Positions 3,185-35,495 of a DNA stretch of 64,000 bases are shown here, one piece after another. The stretch covers positions 32,001 to 96,000 of IMG/VR virus record IMGVR_UViG_3300020576_006930. One strand, 5' to 3'. This DNA comes from a virus. Lineage: Duplodnaviria; Caudoviricetes. Made by a program: the position numbers and the translations under genes. Below the pieces are notes generated by a model that was given only the letters and a program-made list of their open reading frames with translations, was not told the origin of the DNA and made no database searches. Positions within the stretch are counted from its first letter, which is position 1; each line of letters starts with the position of its first letter.

Positions 3185-3819
3185 TATTTTTTAAGTTCGT
3201 ATTTGCCGGCGACGACATCGATGCCTTCAAGTTGGACGGAGAATAAACTATCGGGATCATTTTTGGCCACCTTCATTGTCCCCCGGAAAACAAAATCGTA
3301 ATCTTCCAGGTCGACGGCTTTAGTTTGTGGTTTTTGTTGGAGGGTGCCGATGGGCAGAATGGCGATCTTTTCGGTTAGGACGCCGTTGCTTTCGATGGGG
3401 ACGCTATCCACGACGATATTTAAAAAGGTCAGAGTGACACCGGTTAATTCGGGTAGGTCAAGCCCACCATTCGTCCAATTTTTATTATTTAGCCACCACG
3501 CATGAATACCCTTCCCAATGATTTTGCCGTTGGCTAGGCTTTTGCGTTTATCGCAAAAAATGTCGGTGAAGCGATACATTTTCCACGGGATCTTTATGCG
3601 CCGGGTATAAGTGTTCGGAGTTTCATTTGTGATACTATCGCTATCCGCGAAAAGCGAGGAAGTACCCATCGTGTATGGCGCAAAGCCTCCGGAAATAGTA
3701 TTATAAGAACCGGTTATAATATAAGAGGATGACGCAGTTGCGATGGGACTGGTATTGCCAAACAAACCGGAAAAAGGATTTTTTTTGCTTGCCATAAAAT
3801 TGTGGTAATAGGTTATCAT
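3184..3819 (-). CDS. hypothetical protein
   Basis: 211-aa ORF. Confidence 0.75.
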   Translation of the reverse strand: MITYYHNFMASKKNPFSGLFGNTSPIATASSSYIITGSYNTISGGFAPYTMGTSSLFADSDSITNETPNTYTRRIKIPWKMYRFTDIFCDKRKSLANGKIIGKGIHAWWLNNKNWTNGGLDLPELTGVTLTFLNIVVDSVPIESNGVLTEKIAILPIGTLQQKPQTKAVDLEDYDFVFRGTMKVAKNDPDSLFSVQLEGIDVVAGKYELKK

Positions 3820-6623: not shown

Positions 6624-7026
6624 GGGGCTGTAATGGTTTCGACCAAGTTCTTTGAGTGTTAGGAGCATGTAGAGGATGATTACTTGGCCTCTTAAAAAAT
6701 GTAATTGAAAAATCAAATGCCAAATCTCTAAACAGACTGGCCAACCTTGGATTCGCATTCAATCTGAATGCGACTGAAGTTGCTGTAGCGGCCTAATTCG
6801 GCCGTTCCGTGTTGGGTGATAATTCTCACTAATTATCCAATGCGCAATTTAGTGAGACGACTGGATGTGGTTGTAATACATTCCTGATAGGCGCCTCTGA
6901 TAGGCGCATATATTCTTCAACGACTTGTTGATTCATCCGGAGAATGAAATTCTGAATTAACTAAACATGTAGGGCTTGATACACTAAAAATTTGGCACCC
7001 GGGTTCGACTCCCGGCAGCTCCACCA
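6624..7026 (+). ncRNA. ssrA: tmRNA
   Basis: 5' GGGGCTGTAATGGTTTCGAC; 3' T-arm GGGTTCGACTCCC followed by CAGCTCCACCA (G3:U70). Tag frame 6719-6796 reads AKSLNRLANLGFAFNLNATEVAVAA*. Confidence 0.95.
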
Positions 7027-7774: not shown

Positions 7775-8720
7775 TCAAGATAGTGAATTGATTATTTGAG
7801 GAACGCATCTTCAAAAAAAGAATTTTAGTTTTTGATCTTTGTAGCATAGAATTTACGGGGGGTATGGCCTCCATTATCATCCGCAAGGGTGGTATAAAGA
7901 TAAACCGTGGCGACACGGCCAAAGGGACACTCCCTAACGGGTGCCCACCAATTCGCAAGGATTGGACAACTATACAACTAACAAGGTCTTTAAACATCGC
8001 CCAAAAGGTTGGTGTTATGTCTGAAGTTGGGGAGAAAAATGCTGGCCCAGGGTAACTCCGCAAGCTGGCTACTAACGACGCCGACGAGCTCTATCTCCCG
8101 CTAAGCGCAACAATTAAGAATGAGACTTCAAGTTAAACATCAATGGTATGACCCGCAAGGAAACGCTTTGATGTAGTTTGAGAGAAACCGGGCACGGCTT
8201 ATACTGAGCACGGAATCTTGAAAGACGGAACGAGTACCGCAAGGAAAGGTCAGGACTGGTGTTGGATTTTGTAGACCGAAAGGCTTACGAAACAACAAGC
8301 ACCGCACCAGTTTGTTAGGTTCGAAAATAGCTCAAAAGTAGAGCAATTGTCTTTAGAACAATAGGTTGTGGTGTCAAAGCCACTTTCATTAAAAGCAAAG
8401 CCGGTGCTAATTATACTTGAAAAGGTATTAATACAGAGGCTCGCAAGAGTAACTTTGTCAATCGTAGCCCGCAAGGCGAAAGTTGTTCGTGTAGAAGTGA
8501 ACGGTGTGGTTAGCGCCACTTGTTGCTCGCAAGGTAAACGTTTGAAGAAACGCGGAATAAGGTATAGTTATGATGGAAAGGCCACCATCTAAAAATAGGC
8601 ATACCTATCAGATTCATCTTACGAGCCCCGTGTTCGGAGAATGAGGATGAAGAGGAAGGCGATCTCGCAAGGTCGTGATAATCTCTGACGGCTGATACGC
8701 AACGGTGTAATCTCAACCGA
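7775..8720 (+). ncRNA. giant ornate ncRNA, GOLLD-like (~950 nt)
   Basis: No credible ORF. It has its own promoter (TTGACC...GATAAT 7736-7763), ~9 CGCAAG-capped hairpins and a 3' end CGGTGTAATCTCAACCG, in a phage tRNA-island context. Family assignment is by resemblance only. Confidence 0.65.
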
Positions 8721-16179: not shown

Positions 16180-16265
16180 GAGTGTGTGACCGATAAAGCT
16201 TAGTGGTAGATCGGCCTTGAACTGAGGCTCGGAACACATAGGTTCAAATCCTATCGCGCTCACCA
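16180..16265 (+). tRNA. atypical tRNA, anticodon uncertain (loop CCTTGAA)
   Basis: Acceptor, T-arm and CCA are clear; D-loop and variable region are enlarged. Confidence 0.55.
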
Positions 16266-17374: not shown

Positions 17375-17499
17375 AGTAATGTAGTTAAAAGGTAGAATAT
17401 GGTCCGTGGAGGATAATAAGTTGCAACTTAATTCATTGACTATGCCGGCGGCGGGTTTGTCTGCTAATCGGTTGTGAGGTTCAAATCCACACCATTACT
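17375..17499 (+). ncRNA. tRNA scaffold with ~55-nt insert in the anticodon arm
   Basis: AGTAATG/CATTACT acceptor, D-arm and GGTTCAAATCC T-loop; no CCA. Confidence 0.55.
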
Positions 17500-17506
17500 T
17501 TAATTT

Positions 17507-18227: not shown

Positions 18228-19262
18228 ATGAACATTCTATTGGACAGAGACACATTCCGCAATGGGGTGTTCATGCGTGACAAAAACAAATGTGTCATTT
18301 GTGGGCAACCGGCTCAGGATGCGCATCACATTATTGAACGTAGATTATTTGACGATGGTGGTTATTATCTTGACAATGGCGCTTCATTATGTGCGACGTG
18401 TCATATTAAGGCCGAATCTACTGAGATTAGTTGCGAAGCTATCAGAGCAGGAGCTGGAATCGTGGACATTGTTTTGCCGCTTCACTTATATCGGGATAAT
18501 GTTTACGATAAGTGGGGCAACATAATCAATGTCAATGGCACGCGGCTGAAAGGCGAATTATTCGGTGATGTCAGTGTTCAGAAGATTTTGAAACAGGGTG
18601 GAGTTCTTAGCAAGTTTGTGGATTATGTAAAATATCCCCGCACTTACCATTTACCTTGGAGTGACGGTTTGACGAATGATGATCGGGTAATGACTCCGGA
18701 GGATTTAAAATTTTTAGAAGATAGTTCGGTGGTCGCTACGGAAAAAATGGATGGAGAAAATACCACCATTTATACCGATTACATTCACGCTCGTTCGGTG
18801 GATAGTCGTTCACATTGGACACAATCATATGTGCGCCAATTACAAAGTAAAATTGGACATGATATCCCAAAGGGTTGGCGGATTTGTGGTGAGAATCTTT
18901 ATGCCAAACATTCCATCAAGTATGATAAATTGGAAGATTTCTTTCTGATGTTTTCGATTTGGGATGACAAAAATCAGTGTTTGAGTTGGTTGGAAACCGT
19001 GGAATGGGCAAAGTTGTTGGGATTAAAAGTGGTAGACGTGTTCTTTGTCGGGCCGTGTTGGAAAGACACGGTACATAAGCTATATGAGGGCAATTCAAAA
19101 CATAAGCCCATTGAAGGTTATGTGGTCAGGACATTGAACGGTTTCTCTTATGGTAATTTTAGAAAATGTACTGGTAAATTTGTTAGAAAAAACCACGTCC
19201 AGACCAGTCACCACTGGCGGTTTGAGAAGATCGAAAAGAATGAGTTATCGTCCGTAGGGTGA
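18228..19262 (+). CDS. HNH domain-ATP-dependent RNA ligase fusion
   Basis: N-terminal CVIC..DAHHI...NGASLCATCH; C-terminal KYPRTYHLPWS, motif I EKMDGEN, GENLYA, EGYVVR, KFVR. Confidence 0.88.
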   Translation: MNILLDRDTFRNGVFMRDKNKCVICGQPAQDAHHIIERRLFDDGGYYLDNGASLCATCHIKAESTEISCEAIRAGAGIVDIVLPLHLYRDNVYDKWGNIINVNGTRLKGELFGDVSVQKILKQGGVLSKFVDYVKYPRTYHLPWSDGLTNDDRVMTPEDLKFLEDSSVVATEKMDGENTTIYTDYIHARSVDSRSHWTQSYVRQLQSKIGHDIPKGWRICGENLYAKHSIKYDKLEDFFLMFSIWDDKNQCLSWLETVEWAKLLGLKVVDVFFVGPCWKDTVHKLYEGNSKHKPIEGYVVRTLNGFSYGNFRKCTGKFVRKNHVQTSHHWRFEKIEKNELSSVG

Positions 19263-25858: not shown

Positions 25859-25956
25859 GCCGGTTTGGTCTAACCACCTCTTAATCGGGGACGGACGGTT
25901 TGGAAAGACGGCCGGGTTAGCCCCGGACAACGTAGGTTCAAATCCTACAATCGGCT
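25859..25956 (+). ncRNA. tRNA scaffold with D-loop insert
   Basis: GCCGGTT/AATCGGC acceptor, canonical T-arm, ~30-nt helix within the D-loop. Confidence 0.55.
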
Positions 25957-26130
25957 CGAATTTACGGGGTTACAAGGAAAGGTTCGGTAAACGAAAACTA
26001 GGCCCATTTCAACAAACGCAAGCTCCGGAATAATGTACAACCCTTGCCTGAGATGGATTGGTGGTGAACACCATTTAAGTAGACCGTTACTGATCAGCGG
26101 TTCGATTCCGCTTATCTCCACCATTTATAA

Positions 26131-26878: not shown

Positions 26879-27137
26879 AGGAAAGACAATACTGGCTGGG
26901 GTGAGATTCCCCTCATAAGGCCAATTATTGGAAAGAGAAGCACCTTCCAGGGTGTGATGGTACGACGGTACCGTAGTGAAATCCCTTCGTCAAATGTAAA
27001 AATGAGAGAGATAATAGATGGGAACCTGATGTGGTGTAATTGGCAGCACAGCCTTTAAAGGCAGGTTGAGGTTCAATTCCTCACGACTAGGCCATCTTAA
27101 TGAACATTCGTGAAATCCTCATCTAATTTTTTAGTTC

Positions 27138-27545: not shown

Positions 27546-27682
27546 GCCATGCTAGTTCAATGTAGAACCCATCTCTTAAAAAGCCGATAGTCTCCCTGAA
27601 CGGAGAAGTTAGTGGGGTGTTTGCCCTGCGATGTAATTAGGCCAGATGAACTGCTAGTGCCAAGTCTAGCGCATGGCTCCCA
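27546..27682 (+). ncRNA. tRNA scaffold with ~60-nt insert in the anticodon loop (CT-TAA-AA)
   Basis: GCCATGC/GCATGGC acceptor, D-arm, and CATCT/AGATG stem enclosing the insert. Confidence 0.65.
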
Positions 27683-27883
27683 TTTTGGACAACCCTGGCC
27701 TTTGACGCCGGGGGCTGATGAAGGACGAGTCTCTCCGATTGAATATCGCAGGTGTTAGACCACTTAGATATTCGTTTCAGTGTCCGATCTTTTTTCCAAA
27801 TTTTTTATTGATTAGTTTAAAGTATATAACTCAATTCATACTTGAACTATTACGATAATCCTAATCAATTGATTTAACAAATT

Positions 27884-29429: not shown

Positions 29430-29480
29430 ATTTACCATTGACTTTATGTCGTGGTTCATATATACTTATTTGTTGAATAT

Positions 29481-29568
29481 GGAAGGTTGTCAGAGTGGTA
29501 ATGAGACGGTCTTGAAAATCGTAGCCAGGGTAAAACCTGCGGGGGTTCGATCCCCTCACCTTCCGCCA
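29481..29568 (+). tRNA. tRNA-Ser (TGA)
   Basis: Loop CTTGAAA, long variable arm; CCA. Confidence 0.92.
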
Positions 29569-29625
29569 ATACACGGTTCGAATATTATTTTTAATTTTTT
29601 TCGAACCCCTCTTATACTTATTGAC

Positions 29626-30129
29626 ATGAAAGAAAACATTTTAAAGTTAAGAGCGGATGGCAAATCTTACAACGAAATACGAAAAATATTGGGATGTTCA
29701 AAAGGAACGATAGCATATCATTGTGGATTTGGTCAAAAAGAAAAATTAAAAAGTAGAGTTAAAAACTATAAAAAAACTCTTCCGGGAATTTTAAAGAGAA
29801 AAAAGGATAATTTTTCTTTTTCAAATGGAAAGAGAGTTGGGAGAGGGAGACGAGTACATCTGGCATTCTCTCTTAGAGATTTTGTAAAAAAATTACAACT
29901 CAACTCTAAATGTTATTTAACCGGAAGAAAAATTGATTTATATCAACCAAAAACATATCAATGTGACCATATTATTCCTGTCAGCAAGGGGGGAAAATCT
30001 ACATTAGATAATCTGGGATTGGTGTGTAGAGACGCAAATATGTCTAAATCTGATATGACGGTTGATGAATTTTTTTCTTTATGTAAAGAAATTTTGACCA
30101 ACAATGGATTCAAGGTTGAAAAAATTTAA
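29626..30129 (+). CDS. HNH endonuclease with N-terminal HTH
   Basis: GKSYNEI..LGCSKGTIAYH; CDHIIPVSKGGKSTLDNL...ANMSK. Confidence 0.88.
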   Translation: MKENILKLRADGKSYNEIRKILGCSKGTIAYHCGFGQKEKLKSRVKNYKKTLPGILKRKKDNFSFSNGKRVGRGRRVHLAFSLRDFVKKLQLNSKCYLTGRKIDLYQPKTYQCDHIIPVSKGGKSTLDNLGLVCRDANMSKSDMTVDEFFSLCKEILTNNGFKVEKI

Positions 30130-31567: not shown

Positions 31568-31953
31568 CCAACACCAATAAACTTTCAATAATCAATGTCA
31601 TTTTAACCTGGACGACACTAATATTAGTATTCATAATGCTCATTGCTCAGGCTACAGCTATTCAACACGAAAGAACCATAAACAACCAATTGTCCAAACG
31701 GTTGTCAGAATTGGAAACGAATCAGTTAGCTATTGTCATTACCTGGGAAAAACTTTCCAAGGAAAACGATCAATTTAACAAGCTATTTATTGAAAAAGTG
31801 AAGCAAGCGGATGATATTCTTGACAAAAAAATCTCTCAATTACAGGAATTCGATTTCGTTGTGGTTGAACGACTTAAAGCGGTTTCTGAAGCGCAAAACG
31901 CGGTGATAAAAACAATAATCGGGCTATCAATCACAAATAGTGTTGACAAATGA
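31564..31953 (+). CDS. membrane-anchored coiled-coil protein
   Basis: N-terminal TM helix followed by coiled coil. Confidence 0.65.
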   Translation: MTNTNKLSIINVILTWTTLILVFIMLIAQATAIQHERTINNQLSKRLSELETNQLAIVITWEKLSKENDQFNKLFIEKVKQADDILDKKISQLQEFDFVVVERLKAVSEAQNAVIKTIIGLSITNSVDK

Positions 31954-32059
31954 CCCGGCGTAATATATATTGTACACATAAATGAAGAACAATCTTCCAA
32001 CTTAGGTTCACGGCGAAAGCGAAAACATCGCTGACGCATTCATTTTATTTCCCCCCCTT

Positions 32060-32135
32060 GGCCTGTTAGCTCAATTGGTAGAGCACGACTCTCTAAAAGT
32101 TTTTGTTGCGGGTTCGAGCCCCGCACAGGCCTCCA
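32060..32135 (+). tRNA. amber suppressor tRNA (CTA)
   Basis: Canonical D and T arms, loop CTCTAAA, U73, CCA; weak top of the anticodon stem. Confidence 0.8.
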
Positions 32136-32140
32136 TTTTC

Positions 32141-32195
32141 GGGCGCAATAACAATTTACTTGTTTCTCTAGGTGTGAGTCCTAGTGCGCCCACCA
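32141..32195 (+). ncRNA. 55-nt D-armless mini-tRNA
   Basis: GGGCGCA/TGCGCCC-A-CCA, one hairpin, CTAGG-TGTGAGT-CCTAG. Confidence 0.7.
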
Positions 32196-32200
32196 TTTTC

Positions 32201-32390
32201 GCGAAGGTATCCATAATGAAGGGCATGGATCCGGTTAGTAGGTTTCATACATCAAGCGCTTGGTGTTTTGAAGGAACCCCGGTGAAGTGTGCGATGGAAG
32301 CAAATCCCTATTGGCTTCCCGTCGGTGACGACGAATGGAGCTACAACGCAAGTTGTAGACATGCGGGTTTAAGTCCCGCCCCGAGCACCA
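32201..32390 (+). ncRNA. tRNA-like shell with multi-helix insert
   Basis: T-arm GCGGG-TTTAAGT-CCCGC and ACCA end; imperfect acceptor. Confidence 0.5.
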
Positions 32391-32395
32391 ATTTT

Positions 32396-32594
32396 GCCGG
32401 TGTAGCTCAACTGGATGACGAACTGGGGTAAGAAAGAGTATGGCTTGACCCGTTTCACACCCTGCAGGAAGGTGAACGGCAATAGCCAAAAGATATTTTA
32501 CTCAGTAGTAGTCAGATGTGAAAACATTAGAGAGCCAATCGTTGGAACCAATACGGTTGGTTGGTTGGAGGTTCAAATCCTCCCGCCGGCGTCA
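32396..32594 (+). ncRNA. tRNA scaffold with ~115-nt D-loop insert
   Basis: GCCGGTG/CGCCGGC acceptor, AGCTC...AGAGC D-stem, canonical T-arm. Confidence 0.7.
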
Positions 32595-32600
32595 ATTTAT

Positions 32601-32703
32601 AACAGCGTATCGAATTGTAAAACGAAAGGCAGAGTTCGACTCTATTAGCAAGTCCTGTAGCGTGCTAACTACTTTGTGGGTTTGATTCCTACCGCTGTTA
32701 CCA
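32601..32703 (+). ncRNA. tRNA-like RNA with expanded anticodon arm
   Basis: AACAGCG/CGCTGTT-A-CCA; T-arm. Confidence 0.6.
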
Positions 32704-32709
32704 ATTTAT

Positions 32710-32888
32710 ACGGGGTTAGCTCAGTGGTAATGTGAAAGCAAAAATAACGATAGGGTTAGAAGCTAGACTATAATCCGAAAATAATTCGCGGGAGTAGCAT
32801 TTATGTATCGTTGGATGACGGTCTTACGATCAAGAGCAACGGACTAATAATCCGTGGGTCGCTGGTTCGAATCCATCACCCCGTACCA
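32710..32888 (+). tRNA. tRNA (AAT, Ile-type) with ~100-nt D-loop insert
   Basis: ACGGA-CTAATAA-TCCGT, T-arm, CCA; insert lies between AGTGG and AGAGC. Confidence 0.75.
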
Positions 32889-32894
32889 ATTTAT

Positions 32895-33045
32895 GGGTAG
32901 GACGATGAGCGCCGTGAGAGTCGGCAGGAAAGACGTAGTGGAAGGTGGGGATGTAGTAATGGAAGTGTACATCACCAAAATGAGATAACCATTGAGTAAC
33001 TACGTTGAGTATAAAACTTTGGTTCGAGTCCGAAGCTACCCACCA
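32895..33045 (+). ncRNA. tRNA acceptor/T-arm shell with ~115-nt interior
   Basis: GGGTAG/CTACCC-A-CCA; TTCGAGT T-loop. Confidence 0.6.
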
Positions 33046-33051
33046 ATTTAT

Positions 33052-33193
33052 GGAGTTATAGCTCAGTGAGCCAAACGAATGGGGCATGAGTAGAATGTGA
33101 GGCTAACATTTGAAAGTTCTCGGTAGGGAGGCATAGTAGAGCGTCGGATTTTAGATCCGAAGGTCGGTGGGTAAATACCACTTAGCTCCACCA
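33052..33193 (+). tRNA. ochre-anticodon (TTA) tRNA with ~65-nt D-loop insert
   Basis: TCGGA-TTTTAGA-TCCGA; GGAGTTA/TAGCTCC-A-CCA. Confidence 0.7.
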
Positions 33194-33532
33194 ATTTATG
33201 GACAATGCTACATGGAAGATGGGTCGCGCTCAAAGCCATGTGGGTTTCGTGGTGAAAATCCACCTCTGTCCACCAATTTACCTGTAAGGGAAACACCTTA
33301 TTGATAACCACTGCGATTTAACCTACACTATAATCATAGAATGAAATGATGTGGTTGAAACGACTACGGTTCATTTTTAAGAATGGAATAATATGTTAAA
33401 TATATCTACATTGGGTGCGGTTTTTCTGAGCGGCGGTTCTGGTTTATATCTAGGCGGCGGTTTGGGTTTGATACTACTAATAATAGTAATCGTTGTATTG
33501 TTTCGTAGATAATTATATACAGACACTTTCTT

Positions 33533-33676
33533 GACAACGTGGCGGAATGTAAATACGCACCTATCGATGGGTGAAGTGGGCCTAGAGGCAAGGCGAAAAG
33601 CGGTGACGCTCCGAGCCAATGTGGTGTCGAACCCGATAAGCTTCACAAATTGCAGGTTCAAATCCTGCCGTTGTCG
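33533..33676 (+). ncRNA. tRNA scaffold with ~70-nt anticodon-loop insert
   Basis: GACAACG/CGTTGTC acceptor, Leu-like D-arm, GCAGG-TTCAAAT-CCTGC. Confidence 0.65.
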
Positions 33677-33965
33677 TCTTCTTCAAAAAATAAATTAAGA
33701 CTTGACCTTTTTACAAAAATGTGAGATACTTATCTCCAGATGGAGGTGAGGAACCTCTATTCGGTAAGATACGCACAGCAAAAAATAAAAAATAATACAA
33801 GCAAACAACCAAATAACCTATCAATTGGTCATTGGTAAGTTGGTCGAAAGCCAACTCTAAAAAAGTTTTCCGTGATGTAGCGAACACGTAACCTGAATGC
33901 TCGGAGTTGGTGCGTCCGTCAAAACATAACCCGGAGACAACCGTATAATCCGTATCTAGTAAACC

Positions 33966-34637: not shown

Positions 34638-34692
34638 GTCGATATTATTATATTGACAAACCACCGCTGATCTGATATTATATAGGCTGAAA

Positions 34693-35004
34693 GTTTGTCG
34701 TAAGTGACTCTACGCTGGGGAGAAATCCTTAGAGGAAGTTCGCTGGTGAATAGCAGATATGGGAGAATCATCCTGAGCCCTTGTAAAACTCGGATAAGTT
34801 CAGCAGGAAGGGCGAAATAAAGGGGTTTTAGAATAAGCCTGTGATTCGTTTGAACCAAAAATTATCACTAATCCTAAATTGTCAAAGAGTAGTGCTACTC
34901 ATTGTAAAGACAAGGTTGGAGCAGTTACCCTTAACGGGTGACCAGTCGCAAGACTGAGATAAATGTAGGGATAAAACAGGACAGCGGCTACGGCTGCGGC
35001 AAAC
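34693..35004 (+). ncRNA. rnpB: RNase P RNA (phage-encoded, reduced)
   Basis: P1 GTTTGTCGTA/TGCGGCAAAC; GAGGAAGTTCGCTG pairs with AACAGGACAGCGGCTA (P4); AGATAAATG junction; own promoter at 34653-34679. Confidence 0.8.
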
Positions 35005-35407: not shown

Positions 35408-35495
35408 CGCGGGAACAGGCCGGAAGATGCCATCGACGCTCATAACGTCGGTCTGAAAAGACTATGGTTGGTGTAACTCCAACTCTCCGCAACCA
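35408..35495 (+). tRNA. initiator-like tRNA-Met (CAT) with long variable arm
   Basis: C1:A72 mismatch, loop CTCATAA, variable arm GTCT-GAAA-AGAC; CCA. Confidence 0.75.

Follow-up and report, generated by a model that had tools for sequence, protein, structure and literature searches.

What a phage would gain from a whole row of tRNA-shaped genes that cannot be read as tRNAs is the question raised by a locus in a 64,000-nt window of viral DNA, bases 32001-96000 of the 139-kb IMG/VR virus record IMGVR_UViG_3300020576_006930 (Caudoviricetes). The record is 39 % complete (CheckV) and the full phage is therefore probably larger than 300 kb; coordinates below are those of the window. Since the 1970s a few tRNA-like stable RNAs, with no job found for them, have been known from the tRNA islands of phages. 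Where those islands hold few, this phage packs nine or ten tRNA-like RNA units, nine of which are here named B to J. Each unit keeps a tRNA acceptor stem and T-arm round a middle part with 20-155 extra or replaced bases. A first, sequence-only reading had described these loci as tRNA scaffolds with structured inserts and had offered two explanations, carriers of cargo RNAs or tRNA genes with protein-spliced introns. The best explanation of the present analysis, held with middling confidence, is that the units are unspliced tRNA-like RNAs, which would be processed through their acceptor and T-arm ends and would not be used for decoding.

The units and their shared frame

ARAGORN made no call from 32136 to 33965. 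The pattern of 5-bp T-stem, T-loop, 7 nt and NCCA occurs at 53 sites on the + strand of the window, against 3 on the - strand and 1.5 in shuffled sequence, and together with the units listed below this bears out that loci with an acceptor stem, a T-arm and extra sequence are real. Outside tRNA calls there are twelve of these sites, of which one is the transfer-messenger RNA (tmRNA) and five, with ends at 32390, 32703, 32888, 33045 and 33193, fall among the present units. Eight units (B to I; 55-199 nt) follow an amber-suppressor tRNA head to tail between 32141 and 33275, and unit J stands apart, which gives nine units in about 1.5 kb overall. The clustering proposed earlier was thus correct, and its count (seven loci in 32.2-33.7 kb, six of them back to back) was too low: B and I had been overlooked and eight units are contiguous.

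32141-32195, + strand: unit B, 55 nt; acceptor 7/7, one 5-bp hairpin, T-stem 5/5, non-canonical T-loop TGTGAGT, end ACCA
32201-32390, + strand: unit C, 190 nt; acceptor eroded to 4/7, T-stem 5/5, end ACCA, a core of about 155 nt replacing the D and anticodon arms
32396-32594, + strand: unit D, 199 nt; acceptor 7/7, T-stem 5/5, end GTCA, without CCA
32601-32703, + strand: unit E, 103 nt, an expanded cloverleaf; acceptor 7/7, T-stem 5/5, end ACCA, without a 7-nt anticodon loop
32710-32888, + strand: unit F, tRNA-Ile(AAT) body; acceptor 7/7, T-stem 4/5, end ACCA, 104-nt insert at 32730-32833
32895-33045, + strand: unit G, 151 nt; acceptor 6/7, canonical T-arm 5/5, end ACCA, a core of about 116 nt replacing the D and anticodon arms
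33052-33193, + strand: unit H, tRNA body with ochre anticodon (TTA); acceptor 7/7, T-stem 5/5, end ACCA, 67-nt insert at 33069-33135
33200-33275, + strand: unit I, 76 nt; acceptor 5/7, T-stem 4/5, end ACCA, a central 8-bp hairpin replacing the D and anticodon arms
33533-33679, + strand: unit J, 147 nt; acceptor 7/7, T-stem 5/5, end GTCT, without CCA

With the Rfam tRNA model (RF00005, cut-off 29 bits), H scored 31.5, F 28.5, E 26.4 and J 23.2 bits and the other units gave no match; H passes the cut-off only by skipping the D-arm and using an alternative 5/7 acceptor. None of units B to J is a canonical tRNA, in the sense of at least 29 bits, a four-arm cloverleaf and a 7-nt anticodon loop. All nine have an acceptor-like closing stem and a T-arm round a non-decodable body.

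The frame is shared in detail. The acceptor is complete in six units (7/7 in B, D, E, F, H and J; 6/7 in G, 5/7 in I, 4/7 in C) and the T-stem in seven (4/5 in F and I), the G53-C61 pair is present in 9/9 units and T54/A58 in 8/9, and all ends read ACCA except those of D and J. The acceptor and T-arm were recovered in most units by unconstrained minimum-free-energy folding. The punctuation is that of the true tRNAs: spacers of 5-6 nt with the form (A/T)TTT(A)(T/C), U or C at position -1, and an NCCA-ATTT(A/T) trailer. CCA-ATTT follows almost every tRNA of the window, and the trailer also occurs in the related contigs L006, L101 and L104. Its presence at nearly every tRNA of this clade (13-36 kb in the window, and the three contigs) looks like a clade-wide 3' processing signal. 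The 3' ends of D and J are identical at 24 of 29 positions, and all four differences that fall in stems are compensated on the partner strand. This is suggestive only, since both units may have inherited their pairs from working tRNAs. Two other classes of tRNA-like RNA find no counterpart here. G3-U70 is absent from all units and the only tmRNA match (Rfam, ARAGORN) is the true tmRNA at 6624-7026; as for Y RNAs of the YrlA type, there is neither a TROVE/Ro60 gene in the 139-kb record nor an Rfam match in the units.

Two kinds of unit can be told apart by their middle parts. F and H are whole tRNAs with an insertion in the D-loop, and B, C, E, G, I and J are acceptor/T-arm frames in which the D and anticodon arms have been replaced. 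Without its insert, F is a textbook 75-nt tRNA-Ile with anticodon AAT; H, likewise 75 nt long once the insert is taken away, has the ochre anticodon. Either way the D arm then reads GCTCAGTGGTAGAGC and no base is missing, and F and H are clean D-loop insertions. In F, G18 G19 precede the insert, which occupies the 3' part of the D-loop, and the T-loop is canonical. That of H lies between the D-loop Gs, and the T-loop (GTAAATA) lacks T54 and also C56, the partner of G19. Unit D (32396), which had been assigned to the same type, has a D stem GCTC/GAGC and about 113 nt in the D-loop, folding as a long rod and a GAAA-loop hairpin. The site is that of F and H, but the anticodon region is irregular, with a possible ACG and 8-9 extra nt before the anticodon stem, so that D is not a clean insertion.

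The inserts had been called structured, and this held for some of them only. When their folding energies were compared with those of dinucleotide shuffles, D (z -2.8; 0/200 shuffles) and I (z -2.6) were significant, C (z -1.5) and G (z -1.4) were marginal, and E, F, H and J folded at chance level. Enforcing the cloverleaf on unit F gave -45.5 kcal/mol, against -45.2 kcal/mol without constraint. The GC content of the inserts (45 %) compares with 52 % in the tRNAs and 36.5 % in other non-coding DNA of the window. No insert matched an Rfam family at E up to 10. A mobile element or repeat as their source was rejected, as the inserts are single-copy in the genome, and so was a protein-coding nature of the units, six open reading frames (ORFs) that cross them being without a Pfam or PHROG match.

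Known tRNA-like RNAs and relatives of the locus

In phage T5 (NC_005859), RNA1 (T5s03) and RNA2 (T5s06) are annotated as 'tRNA-like stable RNA with unknown functions'. Like the present units, they lie within the phage tRNA cluster on the tRNA strand, and folding of these 125-144 nt RNAs gives a closing acceptor-like stem and a canonical T-arm (GAAGG-UUCAACU-CCUUC and GCAGG-UUCGAAU-CCUGU) round a large non-tRNA middle. The T5 tRNA region also holds RNAI, RNAIII, RNAIV, RNA2H, HNH endonucleases and a tiny two-helix membrane ORF. The T5 RNAs differ in that they keep the D-arm, carry their extra sequence in the anticodon/variable region and are scattered, whereas the units described here are nine in one row, three with D-loop insertions and one of only 55 nt; those with D-loop insertions have intact anticodon arms.

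In phage T4 the tRNA cluster closes with rnaC (139 nt, 'species 1') and rnaD (119 nt, 'species 2'), whose neighbours are tRNA-Arg and the homing endonuclease segB. Expression of RNAC and RNAD was shown by Northern blot (PMC9697503), and they are discrete RNAs with unknown roles (PMC3014915). The fold of rnaC has a T-arm (CCGGG-UUCGAAU-CCCGG) by the 3' end and an acceptor-like closing stem, and in this and in its setting it resembles the present units; rnaD, unlike them, shows no clear T-arm in its fold. T4 has two such genes, no array and no D-loop-insert type. A blastn search of 50,697 phage records returned generic tRNA parts only and no similarity to the T4 or T5 RNAs.

Because T4 rnaC and T5 RNA1 and RNA2 share the build and the setting, genes in the tRNA cluster on the strand of the tRNAs, the kind is already known from the annotation of these two phages. 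The suggestion of an undescribed RNA-processing system was therefore overstated, the kind having been annotated for decades. What is new is the density (nine units in about 1.5 kb), D-loop insertion that leaves the anticodon arm intact, and a minimal form of 55 nt; tRNAs with a D-loop graft and so small a form turned up neither in T4 or T5 nor among about 150 further phage loci.

Other comparisons are more distant. Archaeal tRNA genes with non-canonical bulge-helix-bulge introns, in the D-loop and elsewhere, resemble F and H in that removal of a D-loop insert restores the tRNA, but no bulge-helix-bulge was found at the junctions here, no splicing endonuclease or RtcB was found in the incomplete 139-kb record, and the phage is of bacterial type (tmRNA, GOLLD). 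GOLLD is a large phage RNA near tRNA islands that may carry an internal tRNA (10.1101/2024.12.08.627333). The present units match no GOLLD model, and in them the tRNA is the outer frame and not an embedded part. The engineered tRNA scaffold (the design of Ponchon and Dardel), in which tRNA ends reportedly process and stabilise an RNA inserted in the anticodon stem, is man-made and serves as an analogy only.

The nearest genome among about 15 billion proteins was an identical contig, L005, which differs at 1 position over 20.7 kb; sequencing run SRR32380203 contains an identical contig. Apart from it, relatives of the neighbouring DUF5672 protein reached at most 58 % amino acid identity. The next relative, L006 (PhoH 86 %, neighbours 64-73 % amino acid identity), shares the downstream tRNA block Val, Pro, Ala, Leu, Ala and the leader sequence before it. 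At the syntenic spot of the row (L006 1521-1716) it has one 190-nt unit, followed by an ORF and without sequence similarity to the units here: acceptor 7/7, an intact D arm, about 110 nt replacing the anticodon arm, a T-stem with a bulged C, and ACCA. An oversized unit at the same spot with no shared sequence implies that the class recurs there while its sequences turn over. In other jumbo-phage loci, tRNA-like genes of 88-164 nt carry extra sequence in the anticodon/variable region. Exact-pattern scans for the anticodon arms of F and H gave no match. Contig L104 contains, at 3394-3614, a 221-nt unit with acceptor 7/7, T-loop TTGAATT and ACCA-ATTT, between tRNA-Ala(CGC) and tRNA-Ala(GGC).

Retained, decayed or excised middle parts

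A single promoter and a terminator-like site flank the row.

31943-31971, + strand: sigma-70-like promoter, TTGACA / 17 nt / TATATT (11/12), upstream of the row
32060-32135, + strand: canonical amber-suppressor tRNA, anticodon CTA, 62.2 bits (Rfam), heading the row
33350-33378, + strand: terminator-like hairpin (33350-33368) and T-run, closing the row

The amber-suppressor tRNA and units B to I may accordingly form one transcription unit that runs from this promoter to the hairpin near 33350. The acceptor/T-arm helix is the part of a tRNA that is read by RNase P, the 3' trimming enzymes and the CCA-adding enzyme, and since these enzymes read that helix, a polycistronic transcript would be cut at the tRNA-like ends. 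Each unit would then accumulate as a stable RNA of 55-200 nt with its middle part retained, as T4 RNAC and RNAD and T5 RNA1 and RNA2 do; the anatomy of the units and these precedents are what argue for processing and stability. The arrangement of the elbow would fit retention: in F and D the insert comes after G18 G19, which are preserved along with a canonical T-loop, and in H, B and I C56 or T54 has been lost together with its D-loop partner. A domain of 67-113 nt at the elbow, or the lack of an anticodon arm, should exclude the RNAs from decoding, and non-decoding would also be expected for an ochre anticodon, as TAA closes 57 of 101 long frames. The carrier idea of the sequence-only reading thus fares well as regards the ends, which would act as handles for a retained middle (same -1 base, trailer, spacers and G53-C61; T4 and T5 precedents). 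Its aptamer or decoy cargo finds no support, given the lack of an Rfam family, the chance-level folding of most inserts and the absence of conservation. As candidate roles, the middle parts may act as decoys or sponges against tRNA-binding enzymes or nucleases, or may be small RNAs that are carried along.

Several findings weigh against functional RNAs of this kind and speak for evolutionary debris, that is, dead tRNA genes produced by rapid duplication, insertion and deletion, as is typical of the tRNA arrays of large phages, still transcribed in a tRNA operon and without a function of their own. The acceptors of C and I have been eroded, and units D and J are without CCA, a triplet encoded by every true tRNA of the window; this looks like decay. 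The T-loops of B, H and I are degenerate. Four of the nine inserts (E, F, H and J) fold at chance. The nearest relatives (L006, L101/G001 and L104) are without the array, as are PhoH-anchored viral and metagenome contigs at 57-74 % identity, and no homologue of any unit was found in about 155 related loci (80 + 35 + 40, the 80 being jumbo-phage loci anchored on the RNA ligase) or in the phage collection. Other damaged tRNA-like sequences occur in the island, among them a unit (end at 27094) whose anticodon loop has collapsed. The ochre suppressor would be dispensable, as would the A34 Ile and Arg duplicates, for which G34 versions exist. Against this stands the frame itself: six perfect acceptors and seven perfect T-stems enclose interiors without any vestige of a tRNA, the spacing and the trailers are exact throughout, and G53-C61 has been kept in every unit. 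In five or six units the D and anticodon region is wholly replaced with the flanking helices intact, which would not be the pattern of decay by point mutation, and debris offers no explanation for intact frames round such interiors. The phage would also have to maintain about 1.2 kb of junk downstream of a strong promoter, and in T4 and T5 stable RNAs of the same build are expressed. Decay is a possible but rather unlikely account. The lack of conservation suggests that the middle parts turn over fast.

Removal of the inserts is the other way in which the units could be understood. F, H and perhaps D would then be intron-bearing tRNA genes from which a phage or host endonuclease takes out the D-loop insert and an RNA ligase joins the halves, giving a working tRNA-Ile(AAU), an ochre suppressor and a tRNA-Arg(ACG). 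The exact 75-nt cloverleaf left by removal of the insert of F or H argues for it, and so does the predicted RNA ligase gene in the island: an HNH-RNA ligase had been reported there, and it is real, an Rnl-type ligase fused to HNH at 18228-19262. Every other test that was run went against splicing. Excision restores a canonical tRNA in F and H and partly in D. Units B, C, E, G, I and J contain no tRNA body that could be recovered in this way, and the idea neither applies to them nor accounts for them. Rfam (E up to 10) gave no group I or II intron and no self-cleaving ribozyme in the units. Bulge-helix-bulge motifs were at or below chance with none at insert junctions, D, F and H have no junction motif in common, and neither RtcB, a splicing endonuclease nor a CCA-adding enzyme was found in the 139-kb record, which is about 39 % complete. 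ARAGORN rejects unit H, with its T-loop lacking T54 and C56, even after excision of the insert; the calls of its intron mode were mutually inconsistent and were therefore not used. Many jumbo phages encode relatives of the ligase that are 45-60 % identical to it, frequently at a great distance from tRNA genes, so that the ligase is not specific to the array. Protein-dependent tRNA splicing is not known to occur in bacteria or their phages, and splicing of the units seems improbable. A variant without religation can be modelled on the intervening sequences of bacterial 23S rRNA, which are excised without rejoining: a double-strand-specific RNase would remove the rod, leaving a two-piece tRNA held together by its acceptor and D stems. 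The insert of D, a long and nearly continuous rod (about 17 bp and further helices), would be a plausible RNase III substrate, but those of F and H are irregular and not significantly structured. We know of no tRNA of this type, and this is the faintest of the possibilities considered. That F, H and perhaps D carry in their D-loops a novel type of bacterial-virus intervening sequence, removed by protein or cut out without religation and perhaps with the help of the HNH-RNA ligase, is a slim prospect when taken as a whole. If true, it would make tRNA-Ile(AAU), tRNA-Arg(ACG) and an otherwise harmful ochre suppressor active under certain conditions only.

Unspliced tRNA-like RNAs, if functional, would provide a compact test bed for which part of a tRNA suffices for processing and stability in vivo, and would raise the question whether tRNA-shaped RNAs serve phages as decoys against defences that target tRNAs. 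If the units are debris, the operon documents the speed at which the tRNA arrays of large phages turn over and cautions against taking every tRNA-shaped remnant as a new class of RNA.

Genome setting and other features of the island

The window contains 45 tRNAs, 42 called by ARAGORN and three seen by Rfam only. All of them, the tmRNA and the GOLLD RNA are on the + strand between 6.6 and 36 kb. At least six more tRNA-shaped units occur elsewhere in the island. The four outside loci noted earlier (17375, 25859, 27546 and 28739) are indeed tRNA-shaped, and those at 16180 and 25965 can be added.

6624-7026, + strand: tmRNA (ARAGORN, Rfam), directly upstream of the GOLLD RNA
8252-8719, + strand: GOLLD RNA, 157 bits (Rfam), with a tRNA match embedded at 8325-8386
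16180-16265, + strand: 86-nt non-canonical tRNA-like unit; acceptor 7/7, T-stem 5/5, ACCA, not called by ARAGORN
17376-17502, + strand: tRNA-like unit of about 127 nt; acceptor 6/7, T-stem 4/5, without CCA
25859-25959, + strand: tRNA-like unit of about 100 nt; 7/7, 5/5, without CCA
25965-26123, + strand: tRNA-like unit of about 159 nt; T-arm 5/5, ACCA, weak acceptor
27546-27685, + strand: tRNA-like unit of about 140 nt; acceptor 7/7, D-arm present, 8-nt T-loop
28739-28894, + strand: 156-nt tRNA-like unit; 7/7, 5/5, TCCA
33393-33513, + strand: 39-codon hydrophobic ORF with a weak DUF3309 match, separating the row from unit J

The amber-suppressor tRNA is intact although the genome uses the standard code; an alternative genetic code was rejected, as the standard one gives clean reading frames. 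The 101 long frames end in TAA (57), TGA (35) or TAG (9). The best match of this tRNA in a relative (76 %) is a tRNA-Lys(CTT), from which it may derive through one anticodon change; a match in G001 taken at first for a suppressor tRNA was rejected, as it is actually tRNA-Lys(CTT). A 7-codon ORF, MKNNLPT (31982-32005), starts 4-5 nt past the predicted transcription start and has no Shine-Dalgarno sequence; its stop is TAG, the codon read by the adjoining suppressor tRNA. Tiny membrane ORFs of the T5 tRNA region resemble the 39-codon ORF at 33393-33513.

An RNase P RNA had been reported downstream of the row (34655-35004) and linked to the array. With 6.4 bits and E = 9 to the bacterial RNase P class A model of Rfam, neither this assignment nor the link is supported. 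The RNA has its own 11/12 promoter at 34653-34681. An HNH/HTH endonuclease ORF at 29479-30129, called on the identical contig, overlaps the ARAGORN tRNA-Ser(TGA) at 29481-29568, so that either the start of the ORF or the tRNA call must be wrong. Just before tRNA-Ala(GGC), at 35409-35495, lies a non-canonical 87-nt tRNA-like gene missed by both ARAGORN and Rfam. Its anticodon arm (CAU) is clean, the variable region includes an additional hairpin, the T-loop (TGTAACT) is odd and the end is ACCA; L006 has a normal tRNA-Met at the matching position.

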